DNA of 64,000 nt from an uncultured Gemmatimonadaceae bacterium (GCA_964578865.1 CAZOES010000007.1:16169-80168), one strand, 5' to 3'; positions 6,163 to 40,470 are shown, counted from the stretch's first letter. Numbers and translations: made by a program. Notes: a model not told the origin generated them from the sequence alone.

Positions 6163-6672
6163 CTAGTCGTCCGAGAAGAAGAAGCGCACTTCGATGTCGC
6201 TGGCCTCCATCATCGCGACCAGCCGGTCGATCGACTTGAGGATCTTGCGCTGCTCGGTCTGGGACAACTGGGCCAGACCGTGGAGCAGCCGTCCCTGGGC
6301 CGGCTGGGGGGCCCGGTCGGCTAACTCGCGACCTTTGGGTGTGAGGTCGATTTCGACGAAGCGGCGGTCTTCCCGGGGCCGGACCCGGCGTACCAGCCCC
6401 CGCTTTTCCAGCCGGTCCACCAGGATCGAGAGCGTACTCGGCTGCACCGCCAGAGCCTCGGCCAGAGCACTGGTGGCCAATGCGCCTTCGCGCTTGAGGG
6501 TCTTGAGGGCCCAGAGTTGCGGACCGGTCAAGCCGAAGCTCTTGAAGACCTCCTGGGAGTAGAGTTCGACCGCCCGCACGATCCGGCGCAGCCCGTTGAC
6601 GATGTCGCGGGTGGCGGATGAGGGGGGCGACTGACGATTGGAGCGGGAAGAACGTGCGAGAGTGGCGGCCAT
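6163..6672 (-). CDS. MarR family transcriptional regulator
   Basis: Winged-helix MarR signature LTGPQLWALKTLKREGALATSALAEALAVQPSTLSILVDRLEKRGLVRRVRPREDRRFVEIDLTPKG. Confidence 0.85.
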   Translation of the reverse strand: MAATLARSSRSNRQSPPSSATRDIVNGLRRIVRAVELYSQEVFKSFGLTGPQLWALKTLKREGALATSALAEALAVQPSTLSILVDRLEKRGLVRRVRPREDRRFVEIDLTPKGRELADRAPQPAQGRLLHGLAQLSQTEQRKILKSIDRLVAMMEASDIEVRFFFSDD

Positions 6673-12860: not shown

Positions 12861-12985
12861 CCCGCTCGGCTAGGCGTCCACCGGCAGCGTCGGTTGGATG
12901 CCGGCTTCTGACGCCAGCAGGCTCATCGCAGGGCAGGGTCACCCGGAAGCCGCATCCGCGGCTGTCGTCAGGATGACGTGGGTCT

Positions 12986-13747
12986 TCACTTCCCCAGCTT
13001 CCTCACCCAGATATTCCGGTACCGCACCGGGTGCCCGTGGTCCTGAAGGGCGATGGGCAGTTCCGCTTCATGAGGCTGGTAACTGGCCCGCCTGGCGTGC
13101 ACCGTCCATCCGGTAAACACCACATCATCCTGCACGATGATCCCGTTATGAAATACCGTGGCCCGGGCCGGCTTCAAGACCCGCCCGGCCCTGGAGAAGT
13201 GCGGCGCATGAAAGACGATGTCATAGGTCTGCCACTCACCCGGCGGACGGGAGGCATTCACCAGCGGAGGTGACTGGGCATAGAGCGCGGCGGCCTGCCC
13301 GTCGGCGTAGGTGTCGTTGTGGTAGGAATCGAGCACCTGCACCTCGTAGTGACTCATCAGGAACACCCCGCTGTTCCCCCGGTCCTGTCCTTCGCCTTCG
13401 GCGCTGGATGGGCTGGCCCACTCTACGTGCAGCTGCAGGTCCCCGAATTTCTGCCGGGTATGGATCCCGCCCGCCCCGGCCACGACTTCCATGTAGCCGT
13501 CCTTCACCAGCCATTTGGCGTCGCCGCTGTCACTGGCCCATTCGGATAGGTCCTTGCCTGAGAAAAGCACGATGGCGTCCGACGGCACCGGTGCCGGAGG
13601 GCCGGCCGGACCGGGGTCAATCACCGGAGGCTTGGGCCGCTCCAGCGAGTTGACCGGCCAGACGGCCGGTTTCTGGGCCGCCAGCGGAAGGCTGAGACAG
13701 GATGCCACGAGGGCGAGTACCAGCGGGTGGGGTCGCATTGATGGCAT
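12986..13747 (-). CDS. DUF1080 / 3-keto-disaccharide hydrolase-like secreted protein
   Basis: Family-typical blocks: WLVKDGYMEV, GDLQLHVEW, GNSGVFLMSHYEVQVLD, GEWQTYDIVF, NGIIVQDD, LQDHGHPVRYRNIWVRKL. Signal peptide starts at ATG 13747 (MPSMRPHPLVLALVASCLSLPLAAQ). Confidence 0.8.
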   Translation of the reverse strand: MPSMRPHPLVLALVASCLSLPLAAQKPAVWPVNSLERPKPPVIDPGPAGPPAPVPSDAIVLFSGKDLSEWASDSGDAKWLVKDGYMEVVAGAGGIHTRQKFGDLQLHVEWASPSSAEGEGQDRGNSGVFLMSHYEVQVLDSYHNDTYADGQAAALYAQSPPLVNASRPPGEWQTYDIVFHAPHFSRAGRVLKPARATVFHNGIIVQDDVVFTGWTVHARRASYQPHEAELPIALQDHGHPVRYRNIWVRKLGK

Positions 13748-13795
13748 CCTGTCGCCAAGATCGATCGGGGGAAGTAACCAGCTCATCAGAGTAGG

Positions 13796-14323
13796 CTACT
13801 CGGTTTCCCCCCGTTCGTCTATCGCCGATTCGGATTCTTCTGACTCCGCTGTGGCGCCATTCACTCGGCTCAGTCCAGAGGTGACGCCGTTGCCGTAGGC
13901 GACCTGTCCGCCACTGTGACCTACCCGGTAGCCCGCCAGCACCAGGACAACCGCGGCGACTCCGCTGGCGACTCTCGCCACCTTTCCAACCGGCCCGCGA
14001 GCCAGCCCCGCCGCCGTCAGGACCAGCCCACCGATGGCCAGCGTGAGGAACAGCTCGGCAGCTTCCTCATGTTGTTCCAGTAACTGCTCACCCACTACTT
14101 TTTCGGCCCGTTCTTCATCCTGCTCACCGGTTTCCAGGGCGGCCCATGCGGATGCCGCCAATGCCGCTGCGGTCACCACCGGAAGGAGCCAGGCCCGGTT
14201 TGGCGCAGTCCCTCGCCTGATGGCCCACCAGGCCCCTATCAGGGCAAGAGGGAAGAGGGTCATGAAGACGATCGGAAAATGGACTATCGCGGGATGAAGC
14301 GGGTCGGGAATCAGCGACTGCAT
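13796..14323 (-). CDS. DUF2231-like membrane protein
   Basis: N-terminal HPAIVHFPIVFM motif plus 4 TM segments. The acidic C-terminal tail is not typical. Confidence 0.6.
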   Translation of the reverse strand: MQSLIPDPLHPAIVHFPIVFMTLFPLALIGAWWAIRRGTAPNRAWLLPVVTAAALAASAWAALETGEQDEERAEKVVGEQLLEQHEEAAELFLTLAIGGLVLTAAGLARGPVGKVARVASGVAAVVLVLAGYRVGHSGGQVAYGNGVTSGLSRVNGATAESEESESAIDERGETE

Positions 14324-17936: not shown

Positions 17937-18090
17937 CTGCTTTCACCCAGAGACGCAGAGACACAGAGGTCGAGTTGGAATCCGACTAACCGGCAGGGCG
18001 CCGCAATGCGCACTCCCCTCCGCGCCACTCTGCCTCTGTGGTGAAAACGGCAGTTCCCCGAGCCGGCCCGGAACCGTTAGAATCCCGCCC

Positions 18091-18837
18091 ATGAAAATTG
18101 CGACCTGGAATGTCAACGGCATCCGCGCCCGTGCGGGCCAGCTCTGCGAGTGGCAGCAGCGGGAGCGGCCGGACGTGGTCTGCCTGCAGGAGCTCAAGGC
18201 CGAGCTGGCTCAGATTCCCGAGTCCTGCATGCTGGCGGACTACCACGCCTTCTGGCACACTCGAAAGGGTTACTCGGGTGTGGCACTGCAATTCCGGAAG
18301 GAAACCTTTCCGGAGGAGCCACGCTTCAGTCATCCGGCCTTCGACTTCGAATCCCGGATCGTGCAGGCTGAGTTGGGCGACTTGGTCATCGCCTCGGTCT
18401 ACGTGCCCAACGGCGGCAAAGACTACCAGGCCAAGGTCGATTTTCTGCGGCGCATCGCCGACTGGACCGGGCACCTCAAAGCCGCCGGGCGGCAACTGGT
18501 GCTCTGCGGCGATATCAACATCGCCCATACCGACATGGACGTGCATCCCAAAGAACGGAAAGCCGAGGTCATCGGCCAGCGGAAGGAAGAGCGGGATCTG
18601 TTCGACGCGATCATGGCCGGCTGGCTGGTCGATGTGGGCCGGGCCGCCGATCCGGAGAACCCCAGCCTCTTCAGCTGGTGGCCCCCGTGGCGTGACATGC
18701 GGGGCCGCAACATCGGCTGGCGCATCGATTATATCCTGGCTTCGCCAGGCATCGCCGGCCGGATGCAGGGGTGTGTGGTGCAGGCGGGCGTGGGTACCAG
18801 CGATCATGCGCCGGTAGTCCTCACCGCCGAGCGATAA
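18091..18837 (+). CDS. xth: Exodeoxyribonuclease III
   Basis: MKIATWNVNGIRAR..., SDHAPV at the C-terminus. Classic EEP/Xth family. Confidence 0.9.
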   Translation: MKIATWNVNGIRARAGQLCEWQQRERPDVVCLQELKAELAQIPESCMLADYHAFWHTRKGYSGVALQFRKETFPEEPRFSHPAFDFESRIVQAELGDLVIASVYVPNGGKDYQAKVDFLRRIADWTGHLKAAGRQLVLCGDINIAHTDMDVHPKERKAEVIGQRKEERDLFDAIMAGWLVDVGRAADPENPSLFSWWPPWRDMRGRNIGWRIDYILASPGIAGRMQGCVVQAGVGTSDHAPVVLTAER

Positions 18838-18898
18838 CTAGACCGGGTGCGCGAGAAACCGGTTGAACGCCAGCTCCACGACGGGCCCGCCCGGGATC

Positions 18899-19591
18899 TC
18901 AGGAGACCCACGCAGGGTGATGCACTCCCGGGGTCTGGCGGCCCGGTTTCGGCTGGGTCCCCACCAGCAGGCGCAACACCTCGGCGTCGCTGGTGGGGCT
19001 GAAGTCGCCGTACCACTGGCCAACACTGCCGAATGGCTCCGGGGTGGCGAGGGTAACGCAGGCATCGGCCAGCCGGGAAATCCTGGCATAGGCTGCGCTC
19101 GACATCACCGGCGCCGCGGCGACCAGCCGGTCGGGGCGGCGTTGGCGAATGGCCCGGAGCGCCGCCAGCATCGAGGATCCGGTGGCGACCCCATCGTCCA
19201 CCAGGATCACCGTGTTGTGACTCAGGTCGGGATAGGGCTGGTGACCCCGGTAGACCGCTTCGCGCCGGGCCAATTCGTGCCGCTCGACCGCCGCCACCCG
19301 CTGAATGGTGTCCAGCGAGATACCCAGCTGATTCACGACCATCTGGTCGATCACAACGGTGCTGCCGCTCGCAACAGCGCCCATCGCGAACTCCTCCTGC
19401 CCCGGCACTCCCAGCTTCCGCACGACGAACACGTCCAGTGGGCAACTGAGGGCCTTGGCTACCTCGCTGGCTACCGGCACGCCGCCGCGGGGAAGACCGA
19501 GCACCAGCAGGCCGGGACGACCTGCCAGCCCTCCCAACCTTTCACCCAGCTGACGACCGGCATCGAATCGATTCTCGAAAAGGGGTGTCAT
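18899..19591 (-). CDS. Phosphoribosyltransferase (type I PRT fold)
   Basis: PRPP-binding loop VILVDDGVATGSSM. Start moved to ATG 19591 (MTPLFENRFDAG) with GGAGG upstream. Confidence 0.8.
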   Translation of the reverse strand: MTPLFENRFDAGRQLGERLGGLAGRPGLLVLGLPRGGVPVASEVAKALSCPLDVFVVRKLGVPGQEEFAMGAVASGSTVVIDQMVVNQLGISLDTIQRVAAVERHELARREAVYRGHQPYPDLSHNTVILVDDGVATGSSMLAALRAIRQRRPDRLVAAAPVMSSAAYARISRLADACVTLATPEPFGSVGQWYGDFSPTSDAEVLRLLVGTQPKPGRQTPGVHHPAWVS

Positions 19592-19857
19592 GCCGACCTC
19601 CGGTTGGCTGCTTCCACGCCGGCGACATCTGCGGGTGACTGGGAGACCCAGGCGGGATTCGCCGTACTCCATACCTAGTGCAACCGTCGTGAAGCGGATG
19701 TGAATCGGATGGGAGAGTTCCTCCGGTCTGAACCTTGCCCAGTGGTACCGGTCTCGGCGGCCGCTCTGTCCCAACTCTTGCTCACTTCCGGTTCACCCAG
19801 ACTTCACAACCGCTTCCCCAGATTGACAATAGACCTTGCTCCATTCGGAGGTGGCTC

Positions 19858-20262
19858 ATGGTACCCACAGTCGATCTCATCCCCGAGGCGAACCCAGTCG
19901 AGCCGGGTATCTCCGCGCTGGCTCAGAGCGGCGCCGCGCTTCTCGCCGAGCTGGTTCGGCGCAGCGAGGTTAGTCCCCTGGGCGTCTGGGATCGCTGGTG
20001 CATCGCCGACGCGATCGCCTGCGAGTTCCAGCCAACCGTCGATGCCCTCAAGCACTGCTGTGAACCGTTGGACCCCGGGATGCGTACTTCCCTCCCGGCC
20101 TTCCTGAAGCAGCTCAACGATTGCCGGGTCGACCTGGCGGTTCTGGCGCTGGATCCGGCGGGAACCGCCGGGTTCAGGGCCAAGCTCAAGCTGCTCCGGC
20201 AACGCTGGCTGAACGGCACCGCCACGCTGGGTTTGCTGGCAGGTCCAGGCGGCGTACGATAA
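19858..20262 (+). CDS. Hypothetical protein
   Basis: ATG 19858 is preceded by GGAGG (19848-19852). Codon composition is coherent and no family is recognised. Confidence 0.4.
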   Translation: MVPTVDLIPEANPVEPGISALAQSGAALLAELVRRSEVSPLGVWDRWCIADAIACEFQPTVDALKHCCEPLDPGMRTSLPAFLKQLNDCRVDLAVLALDPAGTAGFRAKLKLLRQRWLNGTATLGLLAGPGGVR

Positions 20263-29568: not shown

Positions 29569-30663
29569 TTAGCCGCGATGAAACGCCCGAGGCAACGTGA
29601 TGGTGAATGTAGCGCCCCGGTCCACTTTACCCTCTCCGGAGATCGACCCGCCGTGCCGTTGGATGATCCGTTTGGTCAAGGCCAGCCCGACCCCGGTTCC
29701 CTCGAACTGTTCCGGTGGATGGAGCCGCTGGAAGACCCCGAAGAGCTTGTCGGCGAAGCGCATGTCGAAGCCGGCCCCGTTGTCGCTAACCTTAAAGATC
29801 ACCTGGTCTTTCTCGAGACGAGAGGTGATTTCCAGCCGTGGATCACTCCGATGATGGGTGAACTTGGCGGCATTGCTGACCAGATTGAAAACTACCTGGC
29901 GCAGCAAGGCAGCGTCCCCCATCACCGTCGGCAGGTCCCCGATTTCCACCCTGAGCCGGCGTCCGATTTCGGTCTGCTGGACTTCGCTCACTACTTGGCG
30001 GACCAGGGCTTCCATATCGACCGGCACCCCAGTAATGGAAGTGCGACCCAGGCGGGAGAAATCGAGCAGGTCGTCGATCAGTTGGCCCATCCGCAGGCTG
30101 TTATCCCTGACGATGCCCAGGAGGCGCTGACCTTCTTCGTCGAGCGAAGCCTGATGATCGTCCAGCAGAATTCGAGAGAACCCGTTGATGGCCCGGAGCG
30201 GCGCCCGGAGGTCATGGGAGACCGAGTAGCTGAAGCTTTCCAGCTCCTGGTTGGCAGTCTGCAACTCCTGATTGGCCCGCGCCAGCGCCGCCGGAGTCGG
30301 CAGAGCCACGGCTTTGGGCAACAGCGGGACCAGCGCGATGGCGGTGCCCACCGAGGCGGCGGCGGTCAATGCCTTCACACCTCCGGCTACCCAATAGCTG
30401 GGGTGCCAGAGGGTCCAGATCTCCATCAAGTGAGTAGTCCCGCAACCGGCGATGAAGATGGCGAACAACCAGAAGATCCAGTTGAACGGTACATCCTTTC
30501 GTTTGCGGACGAACCAGACCAGGCCGATCGGGATCGAGTAGTAGGACAGGGTAATGACCGAGTCGGAAATCAGGTGCAGCAGGACCAACCCCCGCTGCCA
30601 CAGGTAGCAGTAGCCGTGGGGATAGAATTCGGCCATCTCCGCGGGAAGCTGGGGGAGGAACAT
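29569..30663 (-). CDS. Sensor histidine kinase with N-terminal ethylene-binding-domain (ETR1-like) 3-TM module
   Basis: The N-terminus LISDSVITLSYYSIPIGLVWFVRKRKDVPFNWIFWLFAIFIAGCGTTHLMEIWTLW...VKALTAAASVGTAIALVPLLP aligns with my memory of Arabidopsis ETR1 residues about 20-110. The aligned blocks are ISD, Y.SIP, FV.K, CG.TH and K.LTA. An H-box (SHDLRAPL) and an HATPase domain (DNGAGF, GTGVGL) follow. ATG 30663 has GGAGG upstream. Confidence 0.8.
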   Translation of the reverse strand: MFLPQLPAEMAEFYPHGYCYLWQRGLVLLHLISDSVITLSYYSIPIGLVWFVRKRKDVPFNWIFWLFAIFIAGCGTTHLMEIWTLWHPSYWVAGGVKALTAAASVGTAIALVPLLPKAVALPTPAALARANQELQTANQELESFSYSVSHDLRAPLRAINGFSRILLDDHQASLDEEGQRLLGIVRDNSLRMGQLIDDLLDFSRLGRTSITGVPVDMEALVRQVVSEVQQTEIGRRLRVEIGDLPTVMGDAALLRQVVFNLVSNAAKFTHHRSDPRLEITSRLEKDQVIFKVSDNGAGFDMRFADKLFGVFQRLHPPEQFEGTGVGLALTKRIIQRHGGSISGEGKVDRGATFTITLPRAFHRG

Positions 30664-30874
30664 GAGGCACCTCCAACCCGGAGTGGGCCGGGACAAGGAC
30701 CACACCAGGCGGGTTGTATTCAGGGGGGTATCGTAGATTAGAAGGTATGGTCTTGATGGCAAGGCCGGCCAGGCCGGCTCATCAACCCGGGTGCATGATT
30801 TCTCGTGAAGCTGCCGGGGATGTAACGACTCCTTGCCCGGTGAGCGGGTGACTGGTACCGTGGGTTATCCCCTT

Positions 30875-31472: not shown

Positions 31473-32318
31473 ATGCGGCACATACTGGTAGCCATAGACG
31501 AATCGCCGGAAGGCCGGGGAGCTCTGACCGGCGCGGCCCGATTGGCCAGCCGGGCCGCTGCCCGGTTGACCGCTCTGAAGATCGTACCTCCCGATTCCCC
31601 TCTGCTCGCCGGTCCCGGGGCGCTGGAGCGGCTGCAGCGCGACCACGCCGCCCTGATTTCGTTGCTCTCCCCGCCCATTCCACCGGTCGAGTTCGTGGTC
31701 GCGATCGGGCTCCCCGGAATCGAGATTTCCCGATTTGCCGAATCTTCCGGCGCCGACCTGGTGGTGCTGGGACGTAAACGCCGCAGCTCGGTCGAACGGC
31801 TCAGGGTGGGTTCTACGGCCGACGCGGTGGCCCGGCGCAGTCAGGTCCCCTGCATCTTCGTCGGGCCGGGAGACTCCAGCTTCGATCGGCTACTGGTCGC
31901 GCTCGATGGAACCGAACGGGGAATGCTGGTGCTCAACTGGGCCCGTCGCTTCGCCAAGGTGGTCGGGGCCAGACTGCAGGTGATCACTGTCGACCCGGTG
32001 TGCGACGATCCCCGGGGATCCCACGGGACTCACAACGGCAAGATCCGCCGGCTGGCTGAAGCAATAGAAACCCTCCGCCGGGAAGAGATCATTGCCCGGG
32101 AGACCTCGCCCACCTTCATCGCTGAACCGGCTCCCGCATTGCTGATTCAACGGGGCCGGGTGATCGACGAAGTCGTGAAGACCACCCTGCACACTCAGTC
32201 GGATCTCCTCGTGGTCGGGCATCACCGGGGTGGACCCGCCTCGACCAATGGAGAGTCGGGGGGAACTCGTTTCCTCCTCCGACTTAGTCCCGCCAATCTA
32301 CTCACCGTTCCCCTCTAG
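31473..32318 (+). CDS. Universal stress protein (tandem Usp domains)
   Basis: ILVAIDESPEG..., ADLVVLGRKRRS..., LLVALDGTERG..., DLLVVGHH. Confidence 0.8.
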   Translation: MRHILVAIDESPEGRGALTGAARLASRAAARLTALKIVPPDSPLLAGPGALERLQRDHAALISLLSPPIPPVEFVVAIGLPGIEISRFAESSGADLVVLGRKRRSSVERLRVGSTADAVARRSQVPCIFVGPGDSSFDRLLVALDGTERGMLVLNWARRFAKVVGARLQVITVDPVCDDPRGSHGTHNGKIRRLAEAIETLRREEIIARETSPTFIAEPAPALLIQRGRVIDEVVKTTLHTQSDLLVVGHHRGGPASTNGESGGTRFLLRLSPANLLTVPL

Positions 32319-32330
32319 AGGTGGTGGACT

Positions 32331-33260
32331 ATGATGAACACCTATCGTTCCATCCTGGTCCCGATCGACGGGACCGCCTTCGCGGAGCAGGCGCTGCCCC
32401 TGGCACTTGAACTGGCCCGCCAGCATCACGCGATTCTCCATCTGGCGATGGTGCATCAACCGGCCCCGGTCCTGGCGGCCGCGGTCGAGGTGCCGTCGGC
32501 AGGATTCATGATCGATGAAGAGTCCCGGCAGAAGGAGCAGAGCTATCTCGATCAGCTGGTCGAGCGACTCAAAGTCCGGCATCAGCCGGTCTCGGCGGTG
32601 ATTCTCAACGGAGAGGTCAATGAGGCGCTCGAGTCGCACGTTCGCCTGACAGTGACTGACCTGGTCGTCACCACTACCCACGGTCGCGGCCGGATGTCCC
32701 GGTTCTGGCTGGGGAGCGTGGCCGATCATCTGGTTCGCCACAGTCAGGTTCCGGTGATTCTGGTGCGGCCCGACAAGGCTTCCTCGGGGGTGACCCCCGG
32801 CACAATCGCGAAGGTGCTGGTCGCGCTCGATGGCAGCCCCTTCGCTGAGCGGGCTCTGCAGCACGCCAGTGCCATTGGCCGGGCCTACGGTGCCTCATTC
32901 GAACTGGTCTACGTGGTCGAACCACCCCTGCCAATCGCCGATCCCAACGGGATGATGATCTTGCCCCCCGCCGCAGAAACCGAGAAGGCGTTGATCCTCA
33001 AGGCCAGCCGGTATCTCGAGAGCATCGCCCATCCGCTCCGGGCTCAGGGTCTCCAGGTCGGCTGCACGCCGGTGATGGGGAGCGGGGTGGCAGAGACCCT
33101 GCTGGAAGAAGCCGGGAAGAGTGGCGCCGACCTGATTGCTCTGGCCAGCCACGGATTGGGGGGGCTTAAGCGGGTCGTGATCGGGAGTGTGGCCGATAAC
33201 CTGATCCGTCAGACCAACATTCCAATACTGGTGGTGCGGCCGGCGGCCGGGACCTTCTGA
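32331..33260 (+). CDS. Universal stress protein (tandem Usp domains)
   Basis: ILVPIDGTAFAE..., TTTHGRGRMSRFWLGSVADHLVRHSQVPVILVRP..., VLVALDGSPFAE..., ASHGLGGLKRVVIGSVADNLIRQTNIPILVVRP. Confidence 0.85.
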   Translation: MMNTYRSILVPIDGTAFAEQALPLALELARQHHAILHLAMVHQPAPVLAAAVEVPSAGFMIDEESRQKEQSYLDQLVERLKVRHQPVSAVILNGEVNEALESHVRLTVTDLVVTTTHGRGRMSRFWLGSVADHLVRHSQVPVILVRPDKASSGVTPGTIAKVLVALDGSPFAERALQHASAIGRAYGASFELVYVVEPPLPIADPNGMMILPPAAETEKALILKASRYLESIAHPLRAQGLQVGCTPVMGSGVAETLLEEAGKSGADLIALASHGLGGLKRVVIGSVADNLIRQTNIPILVVRPAAGTF

Positions 33261-34709
33261 TCAGCGGCCGGGAATGTTCCGCCCGTGACAGGCGGCACAA
33301 GTCTCGGGATTCTTCCGGCGCAACCGATCCGCATCGAAGCCGGGCCCGTGGGGATTGAACCCACGGGTCTGGCTGGAATGACAGGCCAGGCAATCACGCT
33401 CCGAGTGACAGGTGACGCAGGTCTCGAGATTCTGGCGAGCCGCCTGCCCATGACCCAGGACGAAGACGGCCTGGGCATCATGGAACTTGCCGCTCAACAG
33501 TCCACCGCTGGATCCAAAGCCGGACTGGGTATGACAGGAAGTGCAGAAGGCAGCCTGGTTATGGCACTGGCTGCAGTCGCTCTGCCGATTGTAAGCCGCC
33601 GCTGGATGGCGGGAAAGAAACCCGGCCGGATGATAGCTGTCGCTGCCGGCCGGATTGGGACGATGACACTCGAGACATTCGCTTCGGGCGTGACAGGCAT
33701 TGCAGCTCCTCGGCGCTGAGTTGGCCAGGGAGGCGTGGCGATCCGCGAAGTCGCCGGTATGAGTCGCCGGGCGAGTTCGCACGATCTGGGCTCCCGAGCC
33801 CCGTCCGGCACCCGCCGGTGGCAAAGCCAAGGCAACCGAGGGATTTGAACGGTGACAGCTCACACAGCTCGGCTGGGTATGACAGTTGGCGCAAGTCGCC
33901 TTGCTGCCGCGGCTGAGACTCCCATGCTTCCGCTGGAAATTGGCCTGCTGGTGGTCCGCCGGTGACTTGAGCTCCGCGCCGATCGCCAGCGAACGGGGAT
34001 CGGATTCCAGGGCCTGAATTGCCGCGACTTCCGGCGCGTTGACGTGACACTGGGTGCAGAACTCCCGAGCATGACAGGTGGCACAGCTCTGGGCCACGCC
34101 TCCACCTTGCCTTGCCTGGGCGCCATGGCCGGACGAGAGCGAAAAACCGGGCGCTTGATGCGAGGACGGGGTGGGGAATCGGGCCACCCGTTCCCGAGGA
34201 AGGCTGACCGCCTTCGCGAGGGTCAGGTGACAGGTGGCGCAAGTCGAGTCGGGGGCGGAGTAGTGGGCCACCCGGATCTGGTGGCAGGTCATGCAGGCGG
34301 CCTGCACCGGTGCAGCTTCAACCGCCATCCAAGCCGCGCCAGCTTGGCCATGGCACTCCATACACGAGAGGGTCGAATCCCGCCCAGCTCGGCCGTGCCA
34401 GGCCTCCCCGTGGGCCGAGTGGGTGAAACGAAGATTGGATACTCTCGGCTCCGGCGGTTGCCAGCTTACCTCGCGCAACGGCTTTCCCGCGACCTCGAGT
34501 TTTCCGTTGTGACAGTTGGCGCAGGTCACCGGCTGGGGGTAGAGAGGCTGAGCCTTTGCGGCGGCACCCGCGTGGCAGGTCTCGCAGCTGACGAACAGCT
34601 TCCGATGCTGCCAATGATCGAACCCGTCATCACGGGCAAGCCGGGCGCTGGTGGCGGCGCTCAGCAGGACTCCCAGCAAGAGCAGCCCGGCGGTGGTGGT
34701 CCGCTTCAT
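33261..34709 (-). CDS. Secreted 16-heme c-type cytochrome (doubled-CXXCH repeats)
   Basis: I counted 16 CXXCH motifs, five of them in close doublets such as CATCHAREFCTQCH and CVTCHSERDCLACH. Start moved to ATG 34709 (MKRTTTAGLLLLGVLLSAATSA, a signal peptide), which forms an ATGA overlap with the upstream gene's stop codon. Confidence 0.85.
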   Translation of the reverse strand: MKRTTTAGLLLLGVLLSAATSARLARDDGFDHWQHRKLFVSCETCHAGAAAKAQPLYPQPVTCANCHNGKLEVAGKPLREVSWQPPEPRVSNLRFTHSAHGEAWHGRAGRDSTLSCMECHGQAGAAWMAVEAAPVQAACMTCHQIRVAHYSAPDSTCATCHLTLAKAVSLPRERVARFPTPSSHQAPGFSLSSGHGAQARQGGGVAQSCATCHAREFCTQCHVNAPEVAAIQALESDPRSLAIGAELKSPADHQQANFQRKHGSLSRGSKATCANCHTQPSCVSCHRSNPSVALALPPAGAGRGSGAQIVRTRPATHTGDFADRHASLANSAPRSCNACHARSECLECHRPNPAGSDSYHPAGFLSRHPAAAYNRQSDCSQCHNQAAFCTSCHTQSGFGSSGGLLSGKFHDAQAVFVLGHGQAARQNLETCVTCHSERDCLACHSSQTRGFNPHGPGFDADRLRRKNPETCAACHGRNIPGR

Positions 34710-36202
34710 CGCGTGCCTCGACGCCTGACGGCCGGTGGCAGCGGGATCCGATCCGCGCCTGAACCAAGCAGCCATGAGATGCTGGCGGCCAGACGGGTCT
34801 GATTCCAGTCGAACGCACCCGAGTCGGGGCGGCGATGCTTCTCCCAGTAGCGGGTGGCACTCAGGCCGAAACGGAGCTGATCGGTGGCCTGGAGGTCGGC
34901 CTGGATGCCTGCCCAGTCGAGGGTCACATCGTTGTAGCGGAACTCGAGGGGCCTGGTTAGATGCCCGCCATCCGCCGAGAGGGAAATCCGGCGGCCATCC
35001 CGCCAGCTCAATCCCGCGTCCCATCCTTTCGAAGCGGCGCCCGGCCCGAACTCGGCGTGATAGCCGGCCCGGGCATGCCATGACGGTCGGATGGCCCAGC
35101 CTGCGCCCGCATTCCAGCGCCAGCCCCGGTCCTCCACAGTTACCAGTCCGTTGCGAACTTCAGCGTCGGCATACCAGTAGCGCTCGGCGGAGCCCGACAG
35201 ATCCAGGCCTTTGAAGGGTGTCGCCGAGGCCGCCCAATTTGCCGCGGTGTACCCCACCGGACTGAAGACACCCCAGATGGTCCACAGATCGAAATAAGGC
35301 CGGTAGTAGCGCACCCCGGCGCTGCTGCTCCAGCGGGTCCGGCTGTAGCGCAGAGACAGATCGGAGGTCCCCCACTGGTCCCGGGCCAGATCGTATTCGG
35401 AGCCGCCGGTCAGCGACCAGTGGGGGTCCAACGGGCGAAGAGTTGCGCTGACCCCAATGCGCTCCGAAACAAAGTTCCTGGTTTCCCGGTCTACCTCCCG
35501 CTGGTATTCCACGCGGGCGTCGGCCCGGGGGGTGTTCCATTCGGCGCGGCCGCCTGCCACCAGTTGGCGCCGTTCCGGCTGGAAGTCATCGAGGGGGTTG
35601 AGCGCCGGGCTGGTTACCGGGAGGGCCGTGCTCCTCGCCAGTCCCAGGCCGGCGTAGACTCGGGCCGACAGACCGAGGTGATCGCTGCGCGCCGTGAAAC
35701 CGGCGCCATCGTACCCGAGGTAGCCCAACCGGCCTGATTCGAGCTGACGGCCGGCCTGGGCGCTGAACCAGTCTCCCGCGTAGTCCACATAACCTTCCAG
35801 CAGTTGCACCGCCGGGTCCAGTCCGGGCCAGCGCTTGTCTCCCTGGAGGTCGAAACCCAGCCGGGCATTGGCGTGGATGCTGACTCGCGGAAGCCCGATG
35901 CCCCAGGCCGTGAGCGCCACCGAAGTCACCATCGGGGCGCTTCGCACTTTCTCGCCCGGTCGGTAGAAGGTGCAGTTGATCGCGCCGGGCGCGCAGTCAG
36001 CCGCGAATCCGTCGGACGTTTCCCGGCCGCCTCCGGCGGTTACCACCGTATTGGCCAACGCCACGCTATCGAGCCGCACGCCGCGATACGCCACACTCTG
36101 AACTCTCGAGTCCAGTCGCAGGAGGAATCCCTGGCATTGGGCACTTTGGGCGGCAGCACAGATCATTGCCACGGTCGCCAGCACCGGAGCTGTTCGTCTC
36201 AC
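34706..36202 (-). CDS. Porin-like outer-membrane beta-barrel protein (no heme motifs)
   Basis: Signal peptide MRRTAPVLATVAMICAAAQSAQC. The sequence is rich in alternating aromatic/Gly/Arg/Asp segments (SLRYSRTRWSSSAGVRYYRPYF, RWNAGAGWAIRPSWHARAGYHAEF, DWAGIQADLQATDQLRFGLSATRYW). The GTG start 36202 has GGAGG 7 nt upstream and a GTGA overlap with the upstream stop codon. Confidence 0.6.
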   Translation of the reverse strand: MRRTAPVLATVAMICAAAQSAQCQGFLLRLDSRVQSVAYRGVRLDSVALANTVVTAGGGRETSDGFAADCAPGAINCTFYRPGEKVRSAPMVTSVALTAWGIGLPRVSIHANARLGFDLQGDKRWPGLDPAVQLLEGYVDYAGDWFSAQAGRQLESGRLGYLGYDGAGFTARSDHLGLSARVYAGLGLARSTALPVTSPALNPLDDFQPERRQLVAGGRAEWNTPRADARVEYQREVDRETRNFVSERIGVSATLRPLDPHWSLTGGSEYDLARDQWGTSDLSLRYSRTRWSSSAGVRYYRPYFDLWTIWGVFSPVGYTAANWAASATPFKGLDLSGSAERYWYADAEVRNGLVTVEDRGWRWNAGAGWAIRPSWHARAGYHAEFGPGAASKGWDAGLSWRDGRRISLSADGGHLTRPLEFRYNDVTLDWAGIQADLQATDQLRFGLSATRYWEKHRRPDSGAFDWNQTRLAASISWLLGSGADRIPLPPAVRRRGTR

Positions 36203-38049
36203 TGGCCACCTCCGCTCTGGAGCAGCTGAGGGCGATAGTCAGCTGGAGTGCGGAGCAGGTGGCAGCTGCTGCACTCCGCCGGGCCGTAGTGATCCTGCTG
36301 GGGCGAATGGCAGGTGAGACAGAATGAGCGCCGAGGCTCGAGGGCCGCGACCCGCGCCCGAGTATGGCAGGCATCGCAGCGGACATGGGCCAAGACCGGC
36401 CGGGCGTGCGGGGCGGTAATTGCGTCGGTCCGATGGCAGGTGGCACAGGCCCGCCCCGCTTCATGGTGCGACTCATGGCAACCCTGGCACCGGGTCACCG
36501 AATCGGCGGGCGCCATGGTGACCGGCGAGCTGTGGCAGCTGATGCAGGCCCTTTCGCGGTGACTCGGGTGAGAGAATCCCACGGTTCGGGTCCGGGGGCC
36601 GTGATCCTTGACGGCAACCTGGACCAGGACGGACTGCAGCGGTGCCAGTCGGGTCTCCGAGTGGCAGCTGGCACACTGATTGGTCTTGGGGTCCTGGTGA
36701 TGACAGATCTGGCAGCCCCGGGGTGGCTCGAAAGTGAGCTTGCTTTTCTGGGCTGAGGGGACGTGACAGGTCAGGCAGGGCAGCTTCTGGTGCCTCGCAT
36801 GTTCGAACGAATCCGCCGGCTGGGAATGATTCGGCGGCGGCTGAGGCGCCGCCGCCGCGGGTTCAAAGGGGGGCCCATCACCTTTCACTTTTTGAGGCCG
36901 CTCTTCGGCGGGCTCGGGGGCCATCGAGTTGCGCAGCGTCTTGAGGGTGTCGAAGGGCAGGGGAGGGACCGGTCCCTCGGTCCTTCTCGCCCTGGCCCGT
37001 TCGTGACATCCGGTGCAATCGCTGGCGTCCACTCGAGCGGCGTGGGGCAGGTGACAGGTGAGGCATCGCTCACCGACCCGGCGGTGCTGGGCTCCGGTGT
37101 GGAACAGGTCCTTCCGCCAGTCGGCATGGCAGTTGGCCGAAGAACAGCTGGTGCGGGCCTCGGCCGGGGTCTTTTGTTTGTGGGGATCGTGGCACATGCC
37201 GCAGGTCCCGTTGTGGGGATCCTTGGCGGCGTCGAAGTCCGGTAGCCGCTGCTTCATCTCGTGACAACGGAAGCACTGCTGCAGGGCGGGGCGCAGCGTG
37301 CCGGCTGCCGAATCGCGGGTGGCCAGGGCTGGCACCGAGGCGGTGAAGATGTGGCAGCCCGCGCAATGGAATTCACCCTGCGTGGCCATCTTCCCTAGTT
37401 TGATCCGGGTCTCCGACTCCGCATGACAGCCCGACTGGCCGCAGGTCTGATTGACCGGGACGAAGCGGTGGGCGGTGCGGGCGTGGCAGGTCAGACATTC
37501 CTTCTTGCCGACCAGCGCGGATGAATCGGATTCGAGATGGGTGCGGTGGCCGGCGGTGGCGGCGATGGCCTGCCAGGTCTTCTTCGCGTCCCCCTGCACG
37601 TGGCACTGCTCGCAGATCTGGCGGGGGACTTTGGCGTGTTCCGGAATCGTCGAGTCGCGCACGCCCGACATCCATAGCACCAGCTTGACTGCCTCCTTCA
37701 CCGGCTTGAGCGGGTGACAGGCGTGGCAACTGAGGGAGTCGTGCTTCCCTTCCATCAGGGGCACGACCGTGTAGTTACCCGAGTCGGGCGGTGGCGGCAT
37801 CAGCTGCCCGCTGGGAATGAAGATGTGGCAGCCGGTACAGAACCGCTTGTCGGTCTCGATGAAGTGATTGACCTGGTACCCGCCGAACCCCGCCATCAAC
37901 AGGGCCAGAACCCCCACGCTGCCCAGTGCAAAGAGCACCGGGCGGCTTCGGGTCTTGAACCAGGTGATGATGTGTTGCCGTTTGGGCCAGAGCCAGCGGA
38001 CCAGAAAAAAGGCGATGATCCCCGCCAGCACCACGCCGCCCCACATCAC
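36199..38049 (-). CDS. Membrane-anchored multiheme cytochrome: NapC/NirT(CymA)-like tetraheme head fused to about 16 further hemes
   Basis: Two N-terminal TM segments. There are 18 CXXCH plus 2 CX4CH motifs (CGQSGCH, CSSANCH). The first four motifs (ETDKRFCTGCHIF, SLSCHACHPLKP, QICEQCH, ECLTCHARTAHRF) follow the NapC/NirT spacing as I recall it. A Pro/Ala-rich linker lies at about aa 355-405. Confidence 0.85.
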   Translation of the reverse strand: MMWGGVVLAGIIAFFLVRWLWPKRQHIITWFKTRSRPVLFALGSVGVLALLMAGFGGYQVNHFIETDKRFCTGCHIFIPSGQLMPPPPDSGNYTVVPLMEGKHDSLSCHACHPLKPVKEAVKLVLWMSGVRDSTIPEHAKVPRQICEQCHVQGDAKKTWQAIAATAGHRTHLESDSSALVGKKECLTCHARTAHRFVPVNQTCGQSGCHAESETRIKLGKMATQGEFHCAGCHIFTASVPALATRDSAAGTLRPALQQCFRCHEMKQRLPDFDAAKDPHNGTCGMCHDPHKQKTPAEARTSCSSANCHADWRKDLFHTGAQHRRVGERCLTCHLPHAARVDASDCTGCHERARARRTEGPVPPLPFDTLKTLRNSMAPEPAEERPQKVKGDGPPFEPAAAAPQPPPNHSQPADSFEHARHQKLPCLTCHVPSAQKSKLTFEPPRGCQICHHQDPKTNQCASCHSETRLAPLQSVLVQVAVKDHGPRTRTVGFSHPSHRERACISCHSSPVTMAPADSVTRCQGCHESHHEAGRACATCHRTDAITAPHARPVLAHVRCDACHTRARVAALEPRRSFCLTCHSPQQDHYGPAECSSCHLLRTPADYRPQLLQSGGGQ

Positions 38050-38234
38050 CCATGGGGGCTGCTGAAAGATGAACTGGATGAGCGTGGTGATACGGTCGCC
38101 GAACAGCTTCTTGTCGACCAGCGAGTCGACCGGATGGGGGTACAGCGAATCAGGAGACTGCGCGACGAAGCCCGCCCCGGCGAGCAGAGCTCGACCGGGG
38201 CGGGGGGAGAACAGGCTGAACCGGGAACCCTGGC

Positions 38235-39902
38235 TCAGTTGGTGCCCCTCGCGGTGGTGCCTCGAGACGCGGCGTAGGCCTTCACAATCGCCGCCTGGGC
38301 GGAATTACCCAGCTTCAGCTTGCCGCTGTTCACCGCGGCCTGGATCTGGGCCAGGATCGGGTCAGGGGCGCTGTTAATGAACCCGGGATAGCTCGCGAGC
38401 ATATCGGCGATCGAAGCCTGGAGCAAGGCCCGGTAGAGGAACGGATTGTGGACTCCGTGCGATCCGTCGGGATGGCTGGCCATTCCGTCGGCCAGCATCT
38501 GGGCATTGAAGAGGGCGCCCTTGGCCGGCGTGATCACCGTGTTGTACGGCGCGGTGGTGAAGTTGAGATCGTTGGGCTGGTTGAGTTTGACCAGGGCCAG
38601 GTAACCGGAGTCGGTGGGGAATGCATCCACGGTCTGGTTGTGGTTGACGTCCACCCAGAGGGTATGGATGTAGCCATCCCGCTCGGTCTCGAACTGGGTG
38701 AGCCGCTGCACCGCGATCGCCTCGGTGGCGTGGCAGCCCGAGCTGGTGCAGGCCCCCCACGAGCGGCTTGGTACGTCGTAGGCGCAGTTGTTGGTGTAGG
38801 TGGTATCCACCACCACCGGACTCTTGGACTGAAGACAGGGCAGCGGGTGGAACGAGTGACCGCTGAAGGTGATGTTGTTCCCCCCCGCATCCACCCCAGT
38901 CAGCTTGTTCACGTGGCAACCGGCGCAGAGCCTCGGGTTGGCACTGGAACCATGGGTGGTCAGGATCTCGGTAGTGTCATAGCTGCTTCCCGGCGGGAAG
39001 TAACCGGCGTTGCCGAGCAGTACCGGGCCCTGGGTGCCGTGCGGACCGCGCGAGGAAGCCGGGTTGGGATCTGGCGCCCGGTCATGACACTTCATGCAGA
39101 GGTTCTGGGCCAGGTTGGGGACGTCAATCGGGAACCGGAGCTGGCCGGGATAGGGCAGCCCGGTGTTGGGATCCTTGGCCGTGCCATGGGGATCGTGACA
39201 CACCACGCAGTTCTGGGGCAGCAGCGTCGTGGTCCCCTGCTCCTTGTAGATCGTGTTGACGCCCCACGCGGCCAGCGCGCCTTTGCCTTCATGGCACTGG
39301 ACACAGCTGGCGTTACCGGCTGGACTGGCCCGTAGCTGGCCGTGCCGGGAGGCTAGCCATTCCTTCAGATAGCTGTGATGCCGGGCCGGACCGGTGTCGG
39401 TGTGGCAGGCACCGCAGCTGCTGTTGGTCAGAGCCGCAGCGGTATCAATGTTGATGCTGGGGATCGGTCGGTTGCCCACCACGGTGGGATTCTTCACGTG
39501 CTCGAGCCCGGGTCCGTGGCAGCTCTCGCACTGCACGTCGTGATACGCCGTGCTCTTCACCGAATCGTAGCCCACGTGGCCGAACGGTTGATTGCCCCGG
39601 GAGTTTACGCTGTGGCAGCCGGCGCAGAAATCCTGAGCAAATCCGCTGGCCTGCAGGTCGCCCCAGGCCATCGCATGTTTGGTCTGGATCCAGTCGCCCT
39701 GCTGACCCACGTGGCAGTTGCCGCAGGTGGTCTGCTGGTCTGCCTCTTTATAGTACCCGAGGAAACCACTGGCTTCGTCGGGTGGAGTATTGAAGGGAGG
39801 TCGGTCGCGATAGACCGTGTCGGTGCAGGCCGAAAGACCGGCGATTGTTAGAAGCGCCAGTACAAGCGTCTGAGAGGCCAGCCGGGGGGTAGTTTTTCTC
39901 AT
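38235..39902 (-). CDS. Lipoprotein multiheme c-type cytochrome (8 CXXCH + 1 CX4CH) with heme-free C-terminal domain
   Basis: Lipobox LTIAGLSAC. Heme motifs: CGNCH, CAGCH, CESCHGPGLEH, CGACH, CVQCH, CVVCH, CMKCH, CAGCH and CTSSGCH. The last ~170 aa have no Cys-heme motif. Confidence 0.85.
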   Translation of the reverse strand: MRKTTPRLASQTLVLALLTIAGLSACTDTVYRDRPPFNTPPDEASGFLGYYKEADQQTTCGNCHVGQQGDWIQTKHAMAWGDLQASGFAQDFCAGCHSVNSRGNQPFGHVGYDSVKSTAYHDVQCESCHGPGLEHVKNPTVVGNRPIPSINIDTAAALTNSSCGACHTDTGPARHHSYLKEWLASRHGQLRASPAGNASCVQCHEGKGALAAWGVNTIYKEQGTTTLLPQNCVVCHDPHGTAKDPNTGLPYPGQLRFPIDVPNLAQNLCMKCHDRAPDPNPASSRGPHGTQGPVLLGNAGYFPPGSSYDTTEILTTHGSSANPRLCAGCHVNKLTGVDAGGNNITFSGHSFHPLPCLQSKSPVVVDTTYTNNCAYDVPSRSWGACTSSGCHATEAIAVQRLTQFETERDGYIHTLWVDVNHNQTVDAFPTDSGYLALVKLNQPNDLNFTTAPYNTVITPAKGALFNAQMLADGMASHPDGSHGVHNPFLYRALLQASIADMLASYPGFINSAPDPILAQIQAAVNSGKLKLGNSAQAAIVKAYAASRGTTARGTN

Positions 39903-40062: not shown

Positions 40063-40470
40063 CTAGCTTTTCGATTTCATGTATTCCACCCCGTCGGCGG
40101 TAGCGCTCCGCCAGGCGTCTTCGGTTGCCTCGGTGAACTCCGGATCGAAGCGCCCGACCGTTTCGACCAAGGCGTCGATGAACGGCTGATAGTGAGCCGG
40201 GTCAACCGCCAGCTGCTCCTTGCCGTGCCGCAACGCTACTCGGGTGAGCAGGTTAGGCTCATTCTGGTGGTGGCCATGATAGGAGAGGAGCAGGCCGATC
40301 GCGTGCTGCAGCAGCTGATGTTGACGGGGAAAGTCGGTTTTCGCGAACATCGGCTGTGCCGCCGGGCAGTTGGCGAAAAAGGTCTGGTAAAACCGGTGGA
40401 AGAAGTCAGGAGACTGCTGCGCCCGCTGGTAGCTGGCCTTGGCCAGCGCGGCGGAATCGGAGTTCATCAC
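40063..40470 (-). CDS. Single-domain globin
   Basis: 135 aa with a globin-like pattern: FFHRFYQTFFANCPAAQPMFAKTDFPRQHQLLQHAIGLLL...HYQPFIDALVETV. Confidence 0.7.
   Translation of the reverse strand: MMNSDSAALAKASYQRAQQSPDFFHRFYQTFFANCPAAQPMFAKTDFPRQHQLLQHAIGLLLSYHGHHQNEPNLLTRVALRHGKEQLAVDPAHYQPFIDALVETVGRFDPEFTEATEDAWRSATADGVEYMKSKS

Follow-up and report, generated by a model that had tools for sequence, protein, structure and literature searches.

Organization of the Locus

Do four adjacent genes of this uncultured Gemmatimonadaceae bacterium encode a conduit that takes electrons across the whole cell envelope, and does it belong to one of the porin-cytochrome systems already described? ORF analysis of the window (the whole stretch of 64,000 nucleotides) led to four codirectional ORFs on the minus strand, exactly where the initial annotation had placed them:

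38235..39902, minus strand: gene A, lipoprotein cytochrome of 555 aa and nine hemes (8 CXXCH + 1 CX4CH), OmhA/OcwA type
36199..38049, minus strand: gene B (start as called), cytochrome of 616 aa with a membrane anchor and 20 heme motifs (18 CXXCH + 2 CX4CH)
34706..36202, minus strand: gene C, 498-aa predicted outer-membrane β-barrel of about 24 strands (AF2 and Foldseek) with a signal peptide
33261..34709, minus strand: gene D, cytochrome of 482 aa with a signal peptide and 16 CXXCH

Recounting of the heme motifs reproduced the earlier figures exactly (A/B/C/D = 9/20/0/16, sum 45). All heme Cys and His of the cassette cytochromes are invariant in alignments of 30–36 homologs, which puts the cassette reading far beyond chance. 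The translational coupling proposed for the last three genes is real and kept in relatives. B stop and C start share GTGA at 36199-36202, C stop and D start share ATGA at 34706-34709, and the C and D starts are preceded by GGAGG and GAGG motifs. The 4-nt overlap is retained at 66/67 evaluable C/D junctions and at 53/59 junctions of the barrel gene with its upstream gene. The start of B called at 38049, on the other hand, is probably too far downstream, because the in-frame peptide ahead of it (...HPVDSLVDKKLFGDRITTLIQFIFQQPPW) is conserved with homologs and coding-type codon-position variation extends over about 60–90 nt of it. The true start is probably a non-canonical codon 20–33 codons farther upstream (to about 38145 at most); the extended start region of the window holds CTG and ATC only, and no ATG, GTG or TTG.

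The gap of 185 nt between A and B (folded as 191 nt, z = -2.85) contains one further element, which occurs only once within the window:

38171..38204, minus strand: GC-rich intercistronic stem-loop with core CCCCGG...CCGGGG at 38175-38200, without U-tract

The hairpin is present in 13/13 aligned loci and shows compensated two-sided changes at five of its 12 pairs, including a 6:6 GC/AU split. An Rfam search with it gave no match. It might act on transcript stability or attenuation, or serve as a palindromic site for a protein, and it could uncouple the expression of A. Since the gap contains this conserved hairpin, co-transcription of A with BCD is plausible only.

Distribution and Variants of the Cassette

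The cassette recurs across the Gemmatimonadota, a phylum common in soils, and the barrel gene was found in 453 GTDB species genomes. Synteny study of related genomes and MAGs, which the initial annotation had suggested, showed that the A-B-C-D order is conserved in Gemmatimonadales MAGs. It is kept in 61 of 80 loci, which are all the loci with enough flank, while the remaining ones lack one or more genes, mostly at contig ends. The genes flanking the cassette vary between loci, and a four-gene unit conserved amid variable flanks supports the conduit reading.

Several versions of the cassette were identified. Type 2 loci encode the C-terminal module of B as a free-standing, presumably periplasmic protein (B′), adjoining the barrel gene as mtrA adjoins mtrB. 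Type 3 loci encode a NapC/NirT-headed 22-heme protein (41 bits against PF03264) and have genes for cytochrome b and b-c fusions at the flanks. Locus L083 has a cytochrome b561-type subunit at the B position. Longimicrobiales carry a divergent copy (L081), in which an Rrf2-family regulator lies upstream and D is followed by TPR lipoproteins and by a monoheme cytochrome c lipoprotein with a CBB3-type domain. Judged by sequence, an inner-membrane quinol-type component recurs at the B position among these versions, which also speaks for a conduit.

The hosts of the cassette are mostly aerobic bacteria, and our search found neither a cultured host nor an experiment on the cassette. The only prior notice found is a heuristic flag, "mto-like EET system", in a Gemmatimonas-like MAG, a label given only because an extracellular cytochrome was not found (PMC6137239). 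The description of the locus as an undescribed system thus stands with regard to characterisation, of which we found none, but has to be softened by that single flag.

Gene B: A Membrane-Anchored 20-Heme Cytochrome

Four parts can be distinguished in B as called:

37852..38046, minus strand: B residues 2-66, membrane hairpin of two helices joined by the strongly basic loop WPKRQHIITWFKTRSR
37000..37851, minus strand: B residues 67-350, 11-heme module beginning with a diverged NapC/NirT-type head, RFCTGCHIF
36814..36999, minus strand: B residues 351-412, Pro-rich linker with conserved PPLPFDT and KVKGD
36202..36813, minus strand: B residues 413-616, 9-heme module of c7/c3-like units (PDB profile matches)

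The hairpin is predicted with confidence by AF2 (helices 2-33 and 36-66, pLDDT >90), hydropathy peaks at 2-20 and 38-56, and its conserved residues are MWGG, R24, W30 and R34. The full-length AF2 model (pLDDT 50) is unusable. In the B-family alignment all 20 heme motifs are invariant, together with 20 extra His. Invariant positions of the linker are P363, F366, D367, T368 and G390, and the linker is missing from the free-standing B′ proteins. By profile, the 11-heme module presents a weak similarity with MtrA (6r2q_A, 6e-4), and the 9-heme module matches 3ov0 (6.5e-7) and the HmcA-type structures 2e84/1z1n. The latter module also aligns with the signal-peptide B′ proteins of L008, L022, L026 and L032, and hhalign (99.7%) shows its homology with the C-terminal end of the 22-heme protein of type 3 loci.

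The head of B had been read as quinol-dehydrogenase-like. The Pfam NapC/NirT model (Cytochrom_NNT, PF03264) matched 0/36 members of the B family at E ≤ 1, that is neither the B of the window nor its 35 relatives, and in the head motif CTGCHIF an invariant Phe77 takes the place of the canonical CXXCHxM Met. B also carries 20 hemes where the family (CymA, NrfH) has four, as well as an additional TM helix at its N-terminus and a 14-residue insertion past heme 1. Nevertheless, the order of a TM helix and then heme 1, here within about 12 residues, is shared, and B is colinear with orthologs and paralogs that pass the model. Its 20-heme ortholog in L081 aligns from residue 58 (BLASTP E = 1e-84, 33% identity) and with an hhalign probability of 100% across 523 columns, head included. 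The head of this ortholog (FCLSCHLM, in which CLSCHLM retains the Met) reaches 27.8 bits against the PF03264 cutoff of 24.1. By transitivity through the L081 ortholog, the B head is homologous to the NapC/NirT family, so that the earlier reading fails on the direct match and is supported indirectly, by descent. NapC/NirT-derived anchors are most commonly quinol dehydrogenases. We only infer quinol oxidation for B, because B of the window fails the model and the CXXCHxM Met is absent.

Gene D: A 16-Heme Cytochrome

D has a hydrophobic, signal-like N-terminus, followed by one domain of recognizable type:

34236..34643, minus strand: D residues 23-158, five-heme ActA-like domain (PDB profile matches)

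After this pentaheme domain come five paired CXXCH-X5/6-CXXCH units and a last single heme. The domain profile matches 6lod_A (7.6e-8), 8k9e_A (8.1e-8) and 6f0k_A (9.1e-7), so the likeness to ActA of alternative complex III (6LOD, 6F0K, 8K9E) lies at about 1e-7 and covers five hemes, whereas D has 11 further ones. ActB-F or other ACIII subunits are encoded neither in the cassette nor elsewhere in the window. The heme number is 16 even in L081 and L083, and it equals the total of conserved non-motif His (15 invariant and one at 93%). The conserved His of both B and D would suffice for bis-His ligation of all their hemes. With enough His for every heme, and no CXXCK or catalytic domain in either protein, B and D fit pure wires.

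Gene C: A Predicted Barrel Family Distinct by Sequence from MtrB/PioB

C contains no heme motif and has a hydrophobic, signal-like N-terminus. The initial annotation took this 498-aa protein for an outer-membrane barrel, and structure prediction agrees: its AF2 model, of medium confidence (pLDDT 77.7), is all-β with 23–24 long strands by DSSP, and its fold matches are outer-membrane barrels. Foldseek ranked 24-strand FimD usher barrels first (TMq 0.44–0.47) and MtrB (6r2q_B) tenth, among further outer-membrane barrels and porins. Identities are 7–11%, and these matches reflect barrel size more than homology. A Pfam scan at E ≤ 1 gave OMP_b-brl alone (E = 0.013), the MtrB_PioB model matched neither C nor ten distant barrel relatives, and a PDB sequence search with C gave no match. 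The family comprises 456 clusters at 50% identity, with a Cys70/Cys77 pair and a C-terminal tail, ADR[I/L]PLPPAVRR, conserved past the last strand. C belongs to an unannotated family of predicted barrels, distinct from MtrB/PioB by sequence.

That C lacks a sequence link to MtrB/PioB and has an usher as its best fold match speaks against a conduit. The barrel might be mainly an usher-like secretion or assembly pore, with D and/or A exported or anchored by it to form cytochromes or filaments outside the cell, and with no static wire, a role with which the overlap coupling of D to the barrel gene and the conserved C-terminal tail would agree. We regard this as highly improbable: C has no usher plug and no N-terminal or C-terminal usher domains, its 498 aa being essentially all barrel; no chaperone gene was found among the ORFs of the cassette; and the usher matches follow barrel size more than homology. 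For a conduit, the lumen of a 24-strand barrel should, by geometric estimate, be only slightly narrower than that of a 26-strand one. The MtrB barrel has 26 strands.

Gene A: A Candidate Surface Oxidoreductase

The earlier reading of A as a lipoprotein cytochrome is borne out by the family alignment (n = 30), in which a signal peptide is followed by the lipobox LSAC with an invariant Cys26. Lipoproteins face the periplasm by default, a point against the conduit reading. The profile of the 30 homologs matches OmhA (6qvm_A, 1e-17) and OcwA (6i5b_A, 1e-13) in the PDB and, more weakly, MtrA (6r2q_A, 5e-9), HAO (9e-6) and c554 (1e-4); the single sequence matches 6i5b_A at 6.9e-8. On these profile matches A belongs to the NrfA/HAO/c554 superfamily and falls in a clade known, from its characterised members, for extracellular iron reduction. 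OcwA (6I5B, Thermincola potens) and OmhA (6QVM, Carboxydothermus ferrireducens) are cell-surface EET cytochromes and terminal reductases of Fe(III)-reducers (PMC6703420, PMC9250108). The initial annotation had named a match to periplasmic reductase families as counting against its reading; such a match exists at the level of the superfamily, yet A groups with the surface reductases.

All nine heme sites of A are invariant, compared to nine hemes in OcwA and eleven in OmhA. The clade is also marked by two penta-coordinated hemes, both under a conserved non-bonding His-His motif, and by a C-terminal three-helix bundle. In A, HH175/176 (about 77% conserved) aligns with a His-His pair of OcwA and OmhA and no second HH pair was identified; of the C-terminus, the "DGSxGVHN" motif (with the "GxHN" helix motif) alone aligns. 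A differs in that the similarity spans about 200 of its 555 residues, one site is CX4CH, and the single visible HH pair is incompletely conserved. OcwA and OmhA are Gram-positive proteins, whereas A is a diderm lipoprotein, encoded beside an outer-membrane barrel and with no S-layer or cell-wall context. A is put forward as a candidate terminal (surface) oxidoreductase.

The nine hemes of A face eight invariant non-motif His, and one heme may have open coordination. With this possible open site and its superfamily, A could instead be an enzyme for a soluble substrate. The cassette would then be an elaborated Nrf/Otr-like system, respiratory or detoxifying, in which A, as a catalytic reductase of the NrfA superfamily fed by an NrfH-like B, acts on an N- or S-oxyanion in solution (nitrite, hydroxylamine, NO, sulfite, tetrathionate) and the barrel supplies substrate or keeps the enzyme at or close to the outer membrane. 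The HAO and c554 matches, the count of distal His, the His-His pair aligned with that of OcwA, the NapC/NirT/NrfH descent of the B head and the Rrf2-family regulator ahead of the L081 cassette all fit such a system. OcwA reduces nitrite and hydroxylamine in vitro, although it turns nitrite over very slowly, in what is viewed as a side reaction (PMC6703420). However, A has no CXXCK motif, its HH pair is only partly conserved, and 36 extra wire-like hemes plus a 24-strand barrel coupled to two cytochromes would be superfluous for a soluble substrate. We consider this explanation improbable.

Comparison with Known Systems

The cassette shares with MtrCAB (Shewanella, 6R2Q), MtoAB, PioAB and DmsEF the logic of a lipoprotein cytochrome, a periplasm-side cytochrome and a large barrel encoded by adjacent genes. 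C resembles MtrB by fold, and the profiles of A and B weakly touch MtrA. However, C has 498 aa and about 24 strands while the 6r2q_B chain has 649 residues, A is OcwA/OmhA-type and not MtrC-type, the 16-heme D is added, and the inner-membrane anchor, a separate CymA in Mtr, is built in. In the MtrA/DmsE model (TIGR03508, cutoff 192.2 bits) A, B and D score 38.1, 22.5 and 12.5 bits, and their 9, 20 and 16 hemes contrast with the ten of MtrA/DmsE.

Clusters of a porin-like protein with periplasmic and lipoprotein multiheme cytochromes are described for Geobacter PCCs and for MAGs of many phyla (PMC13264449, citing Shi et al. 2014). The cassette is of the same general type as OmaB/OmbB/OmcB and ExtABCD, and the C-terminal module of B resembles c7-domain chains (3ov0). 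It departs from them in its heme numbers (9/20/16) and in the families of A, B and D, and presumably in that of the barrel. None of the curated Geobacter models was reached (GSU2203 family, 21.7 bits against 325). With scores below the Mtr and curated family models and no MtrB_PioB match, the earlier view that the locus fits neither canonical system is upheld.

Proposed Electron Route

These data support the hypothesis that the cassette probably encodes a trans-envelope electron conduit of porin-cytochrome type, so far uncharacterised and specific to the Gemmatimonadota, which most likely takes electrons of respiration from the inner membrane out to the surface of the cell. The anchored, NapC/NirT-derived head of B would accept electrons from the quinol pool or an inner-membrane partner and pass them along the 11-heme module and over the Pro-rich linker to the 9-heme c7-like module. 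The outer membrane would be crossed via a cytochrome sheathed by barrel C, either the C-terminal module of B or the 16-heme D, which present data do not distinguish. Electrons would arrive at A, which would reduce an acceptor outside the cell or bound to its surface, for example Fe(III)/Mn(IV) minerals, humics or flavins. We infer the protein locations, the electron order, the outward direction, the quinol oxidation and the acceptor alike.

Porin-cytochrome conduits operate in either direction in known systems, as MtoAB/PioAB and MtrCAB illustrate, and the same hardware could bring electrons inward, to the respiratory chain, with Fe(II), Mn(II) or reduced humics outside the cell, or a partner cell, as the donor. 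The lipoproteins past D in L081 are reminiscent of terminal-oxidase donors, type 3 clusters are flanked by cytochrome b and b-c fusion genes, and the Gemmatimonas-like cluster was called "mto-like", if solely for want of an extracellular cytochrome (PMC6137239). Inward flow nevertheless seems rather unlikely, given that the nearest characterised relatives of A are terminal reductases, that an anchor of NapC/NirT descent is most commonly a quinol dehydrogenase, and that no link of the cassette to carbon fixation or a dedicated oxidase was found within the window.

For the outward conduit, a bolder version can be tentatively raised, though we hold it to be doubtful: in the most frequent cassette form, to which this window belongs, the single polypeptide B would hard-wire the whole envelope, so that the periplasm is crossed without a soluble shuttle. 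B would begin in the inner membrane with a quinol site of NapC/NirT descent, carry its 20 hemes in two modules connected by the conserved linker, and dock with its C-terminal module in or at the outer-membrane barrel, past which D and A would prolong the wire. If true, the conduit would be tethered and span the periplasm, in contrast to the shuttle-based models of Shewanella and Geobacter, and a major "aerobic" soil phylum, the Gemmatimonadota, would respire minerals or humics.

Organization of the Cassette

Four ORFs on the minus strand were located at the coordinates of the initial annotation, which had proposed a conduit operon of multiheme cytochromes and a barrel, and a recount returned exactly its heme motif numbers for genes A, B, C and D. 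The cassette and its near flanks are arranged as follows:

29569–30762 (minus), 31473–33260 (plus) and 40063–40470 (minus): near flanks, with a histidine kinase, two universal stress proteins and a small globin
33261–34709, minus: gene D, 16 CXXCH
34706–36202, minus: gene C, no heme motif
36199–38049, minus: gene B, 18 CXXCH and 2 CX4CH
38171–38204 (core 38175–38200), minus: GC-rich stem-loop between A and B
38235–39902, minus: gene A, 8 CXXCH and 1 CX4CH

The claimed overlaps are also present, GTGA being common to B/C and ATGA to C/D, with a GGAGG/GAGG motif upstream of each. Heme Cys and His residues of A, B and D are all invariant in alignments of 30–36 homologs, so the motifs are not due to chance. 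These three are the sole multiheme ORFs within the 64-kb window, where GC content is 62–67% throughout.

The A–B stem-loop, about 35–65 nt past the stop of A and lacking a U-tract, occurs once in the window and was found in 13/13 related loci aligned, where its GC/AU changes are compensatory. The element may tune expression of A relative to BCD, or represent a palindromic operator. Rfam had no match to the cassette, stem-loop included. Promoter scanning found no sigma-70-like promoter, and terminator-like sites appeared at chance rate, in a scan that is uninformative for this phylum. Regarding gene B, its start was called at 38049; the in-frame upstream peptide (38050–38145, minus) is conserved with homologs and its region presents coding-type codon-position variation, and the true start is probably upstream of 38049. 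This region harbors no ATG, GTG or TTG in the window or in the related locus L010, only CTG and ATC, and B may start at a non-canonical codon. Gene calls of about 680 aa for B in other MAGs run through the A–B hairpin. They were rejected as the true start, their N-terminal ‘LAGAGF’ being the 3′ arm of the conserved hairpin; coding periodicity upstream of B is lost past about 90 nt, and these calls are probably over-extended.

Distribution and Synteny

Among the candidates scored, 763 barrel and 1107 B homologs were detected, the named ones all being Gemmatimonadales/Gemmatimonadota MAG proteins labelled ‘hypothetical’ or ‘cytochrome c3 family’. Scanning one genome per GTDB species placed the barrel gene at 453 places, and almost all of the best 80 come from soil-catalogue MAGs of Gemmatimonadales. 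Conserved synteny in related MAGs, which the initial annotation had proposed to look for, was revealed when the four window proteins were compared by tblastn with these best 80 loci of 453: the order A-B-C-D is kept in 61, while the rest miss at least one cassette gene, mostly at contig ends. The 4-nt overlap is kept at 66/67 C/D junctions and at 53/59 junctions of the barrel with its upstream gene. A cultured host was also sought, and the matches listed (best 80 of 453 GTDB places) comprised only MAGs and unnamed metagenome proteins. Two MAGs labelled Acidimicrobiaceae and Bacillota (L073, L075) carry the full cassette; binning errors are more likely than transfers, because the other listed matches all belong to Gemmatimonadota.

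The flanking genes of the window, none of which accompanies the cassette elsewhere, encode a histidine kinase, two Usp proteins, a globin, a nitronate monooxygenase and a metallo-β-lactamase-fold protein. The cassette is therefore self-contained, and no regulator or maturation genes can be attributed to it. The kinase carries an ethylene-receptor-like ETR1_N domain (E = 3e-41) and the universal stress proteins are tandem-domain; together with the small globin gene, these sensing and stress genes might relate to oxygen or redox shifts. Three other loci (L001 at 15989–20190, L003 at 16361–20247, L020 at 16018–19493) each bear two further very large cytochrome ORFs on the same strand, 3–5 kb downstream of D, with 23 CXXCH and 17–26 CXXCH; the L020 pair overlaps, making its ORF calls uncertain. 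Such downstream ORFs are absent from the window.

Cassette Architectures

Three architectures were distinguished among the compared loci. Type 1 is the layout of the window (at least 39 loci). In type 2 (at least 6 loci) the 9-heme module stands alone as a free-standing signal-peptide protein. Type 3 has a cytochrome b, proteins with 9, 22 and 11 hemes, the barrel, D and an additional cytochrome b-c fusion; the 22-heme protein bears a genuine NapC/NirT head (41 bits). Such additions suggest that the inner-membrane end evolved in a modular way. The conserved core consists of the 9-heme module, the barrel and D: the last two are invariably neighbours, and the module immediately precedes the barrel in all but type 3. 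L022 and L042 belong to one genome (MAG MFD01721.bin.1.83), which thus has both type 2 and type 3 cassettes. Cytochrome b/b6-type genes are among the type 3 additions in this genome and at L041, L047, L048 and L054.

A divergent cassette, L081, keeps the same 9/20/barrel/16 layout beside a TyrRS that is 70–77% identical to Longimicrobiales proteins. An Rrf2-family regulator (6204–6599) precedes it, and after it come three lipoproteins, two with TPR domains and one a monoheme cytochrome c (12972–14277). They may be additional partners or hint at regulation through NO, iron or Fe-S sensing. At L083, a separate cytochrome b561-type subunit stands at the position of B. An inner-membrane quinol-type component, varying in form, is thus recurrent in the cassette.

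The Cytochromes and the Barrel

Gene A carries the lipobox LSAC with an invariant Cys26 and is a predicted lipoprotein. Its family profile matches OmhA (6qvm, 1e-17), OcwA (6i5b, 1e-13) and 6r2q_A (5e-9), the 333-residue chain of the Mtr complex that we take to be MtrA. The PDB table of the sequence search names this chain ‘Cystathionine beta-synthase’, which looks wrong, as the fold library lists 6r2q as ‘Structure of the Mtr complex’. OcwA is a nonaheme terminal reductase of the Thermincola cell surface, with an NrfA-like helix bundle and two open-site hemes beneath His-His motifs (PMC6703420), and OmhA is its 11-heme relative on the S-layer of Carboxydothermus (PMC9250108). The His-His pair at 175/176 of A (about 77% conserved) aligns with that of OcwA and OmhA, and so does the C-terminal ‘DGSxGVHN’ motif. 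Together with the profile matches, these features mark A as an OcwA/OmhA-type cytochrome. Against nine heme sites there are eight invariant non-motif histidines, and one heme could possibly have open coordination. HAO and c554 match the A profile more weakly than OmhA, OcwA and 6r2q_A do. In a rival reading, the cassette would encode an Nrf/Otr-like enzyme system acting on a soluble substrate.

Gene B combines 20 motifs with 20 further histidines, all invariant, which fits bis-His ligation throughout. Residues 1–350 comprise the membrane anchor and 11 hemes, and residues 413–616 a 9-heme module resembling chains of c7/c3 units (3ov0, HmcA-type); the Pro-rich linker that joins the two modules conserves the motifs PPLPFDT and KVKGD. 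The AF2 model of B (pLDDT 50) is confident for the N-terminal two-helix TM hairpin alone and was dropped as a fold-search query. The quinol-dehydrogenase-like head initially proposed for B did not hold by direct comparison, since neither window B nor any of 35 relatives reached the threshold of the NapC/NirT model, but it is supported through its L081 ortholog. The 20-heme protein of L081, with one TM helix, passes this model with its FCLSCHLM head (27.8 vs 24.1 bits), and because window B is colinear with it, head included (E = 1e-84; hhalign 100%, 523 columns), B has a diverged NapC/NirT-type head. It differs from NapC/NirT by an invariant Phe in place of Met, a 14-residue insertion and an extra TM helix. 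NrfH was rejected as evidence for the head, the PDB profile match being in the C-terminal region (E = 0.009).

Gene C had no match to MtrB_PioB, a profile that the initial annotation had proposed to run, and only a sub-threshold one to OMP_b-brl in Pfam; NCBIfam gave no match, nor did a sequence search of PDB with the barrel family profile. The claim of a porin-like 498-aa protein is borne out by modelling. AF2, from a 30-sequence alignment, returned an all-β protein (pLDDT 77.7) with a signal helix followed by 23–24 long antiparallel strands, and Foldseek matched it exclusively to outer-membrane barrels; the closest in size is the 24-strand FimD usher barrel (TMq 0.44–0.47), with MtrB of the Mtr complex at rank 10. 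An exhaustive profile search yielded 456 clusters at 50% identity (178 at E ≤ 1e-30), and distant full-length relatives are unnamed and match no Pfam family. Gene C belongs to an unannotated outer-membrane barrel family, distinct from the MtrB family. By context it would have an MtrB-like role; a rival reading makes it an export pore for cytochromes.

The 16 hemes of gene D are matched by 16 conserved histidines outside the motifs. In its first part, with five hemes, D resembles ActA, a subunit of alternative complex III (about 1e-7); five paired CXXCH-X5/6-CXXCH units and a final heme follow. D of L081 and L083 also retains 16 hemes and the 4-nt overlap with the barrel gene.

Proposed Electron Route and Significance

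The cassette is best read as encoding a porin-cytochrome conduit with a wired connection to the inner membrane. Electrons would pass from the quinol pool to the head of B and through its two heme modules, cross the outer membrane inside barrel C via the C-terminal module of B or via D, and reach lipoprotein A and an external acceptor. We infer which cytochrome occupies the barrel, how A is oriented and which way electrons flow; inward electron uptake through the same proteins is the rival with regard to direction. The ten hemes of MtrA span about 8 nm. As 20 hemes at that spacing could cover most of a periplasm, the fused B of type 1 suggests a tethered, shuttle-free periplasmic bridge, an idea that we regard as rather doubtful.

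By Pfam and NCBIfam, no cassette protein falls in a curated Mtr, Pcc or Dms family, in line with the initial view that the operon fits neither canonical system. NCBIfam matches (UshA-like, DmsE, HmcA, GSU2203, NrfH, DsrJ) are all far sub-threshold and were rejected as family assignments. MAGs from numerous phyla have already been reported to carry porin-cytochrome clusters (PMC13264449), one study gave a Gemmatimonas-like MAG the heuristic label ‘mto-like EET system’ (PMC6137239) and a survey counted a small number of CbcL and ImcH homologs for Gemmatimonadetes (PMC6295460). A description of this cassette was not found in the searchable literature. The porin-cytochrome cluster is a known kind of system, to which this cassette adds a new version.

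In soil, Gemmatimonadota rank with the more abundant phyla, and they are usually regarded as aerobic heterotrophs. Because of this abundance and its unusual composition, we consider the cassette of moderate to high interest. It provides an outer-membrane barrel family that is new among cytochrome conduits and, within the searchable literature, the first case of a diderm with an OcwA/OmhA-type ‘Gram-positive’ terminal reductase in lipoprotein form next to a porin. The inner-membrane anchor and the module proximal to the barrel occur in nature both fused and unfused, which gives a comparison set for periplasm crossing. A conserved trans-envelope electron conduit in hundreds of Gemmatimonadota species would suggest that they have an overlooked part in the redox cycling of Fe, Mn and humics in soil, and a means of surviving anoxic spells.
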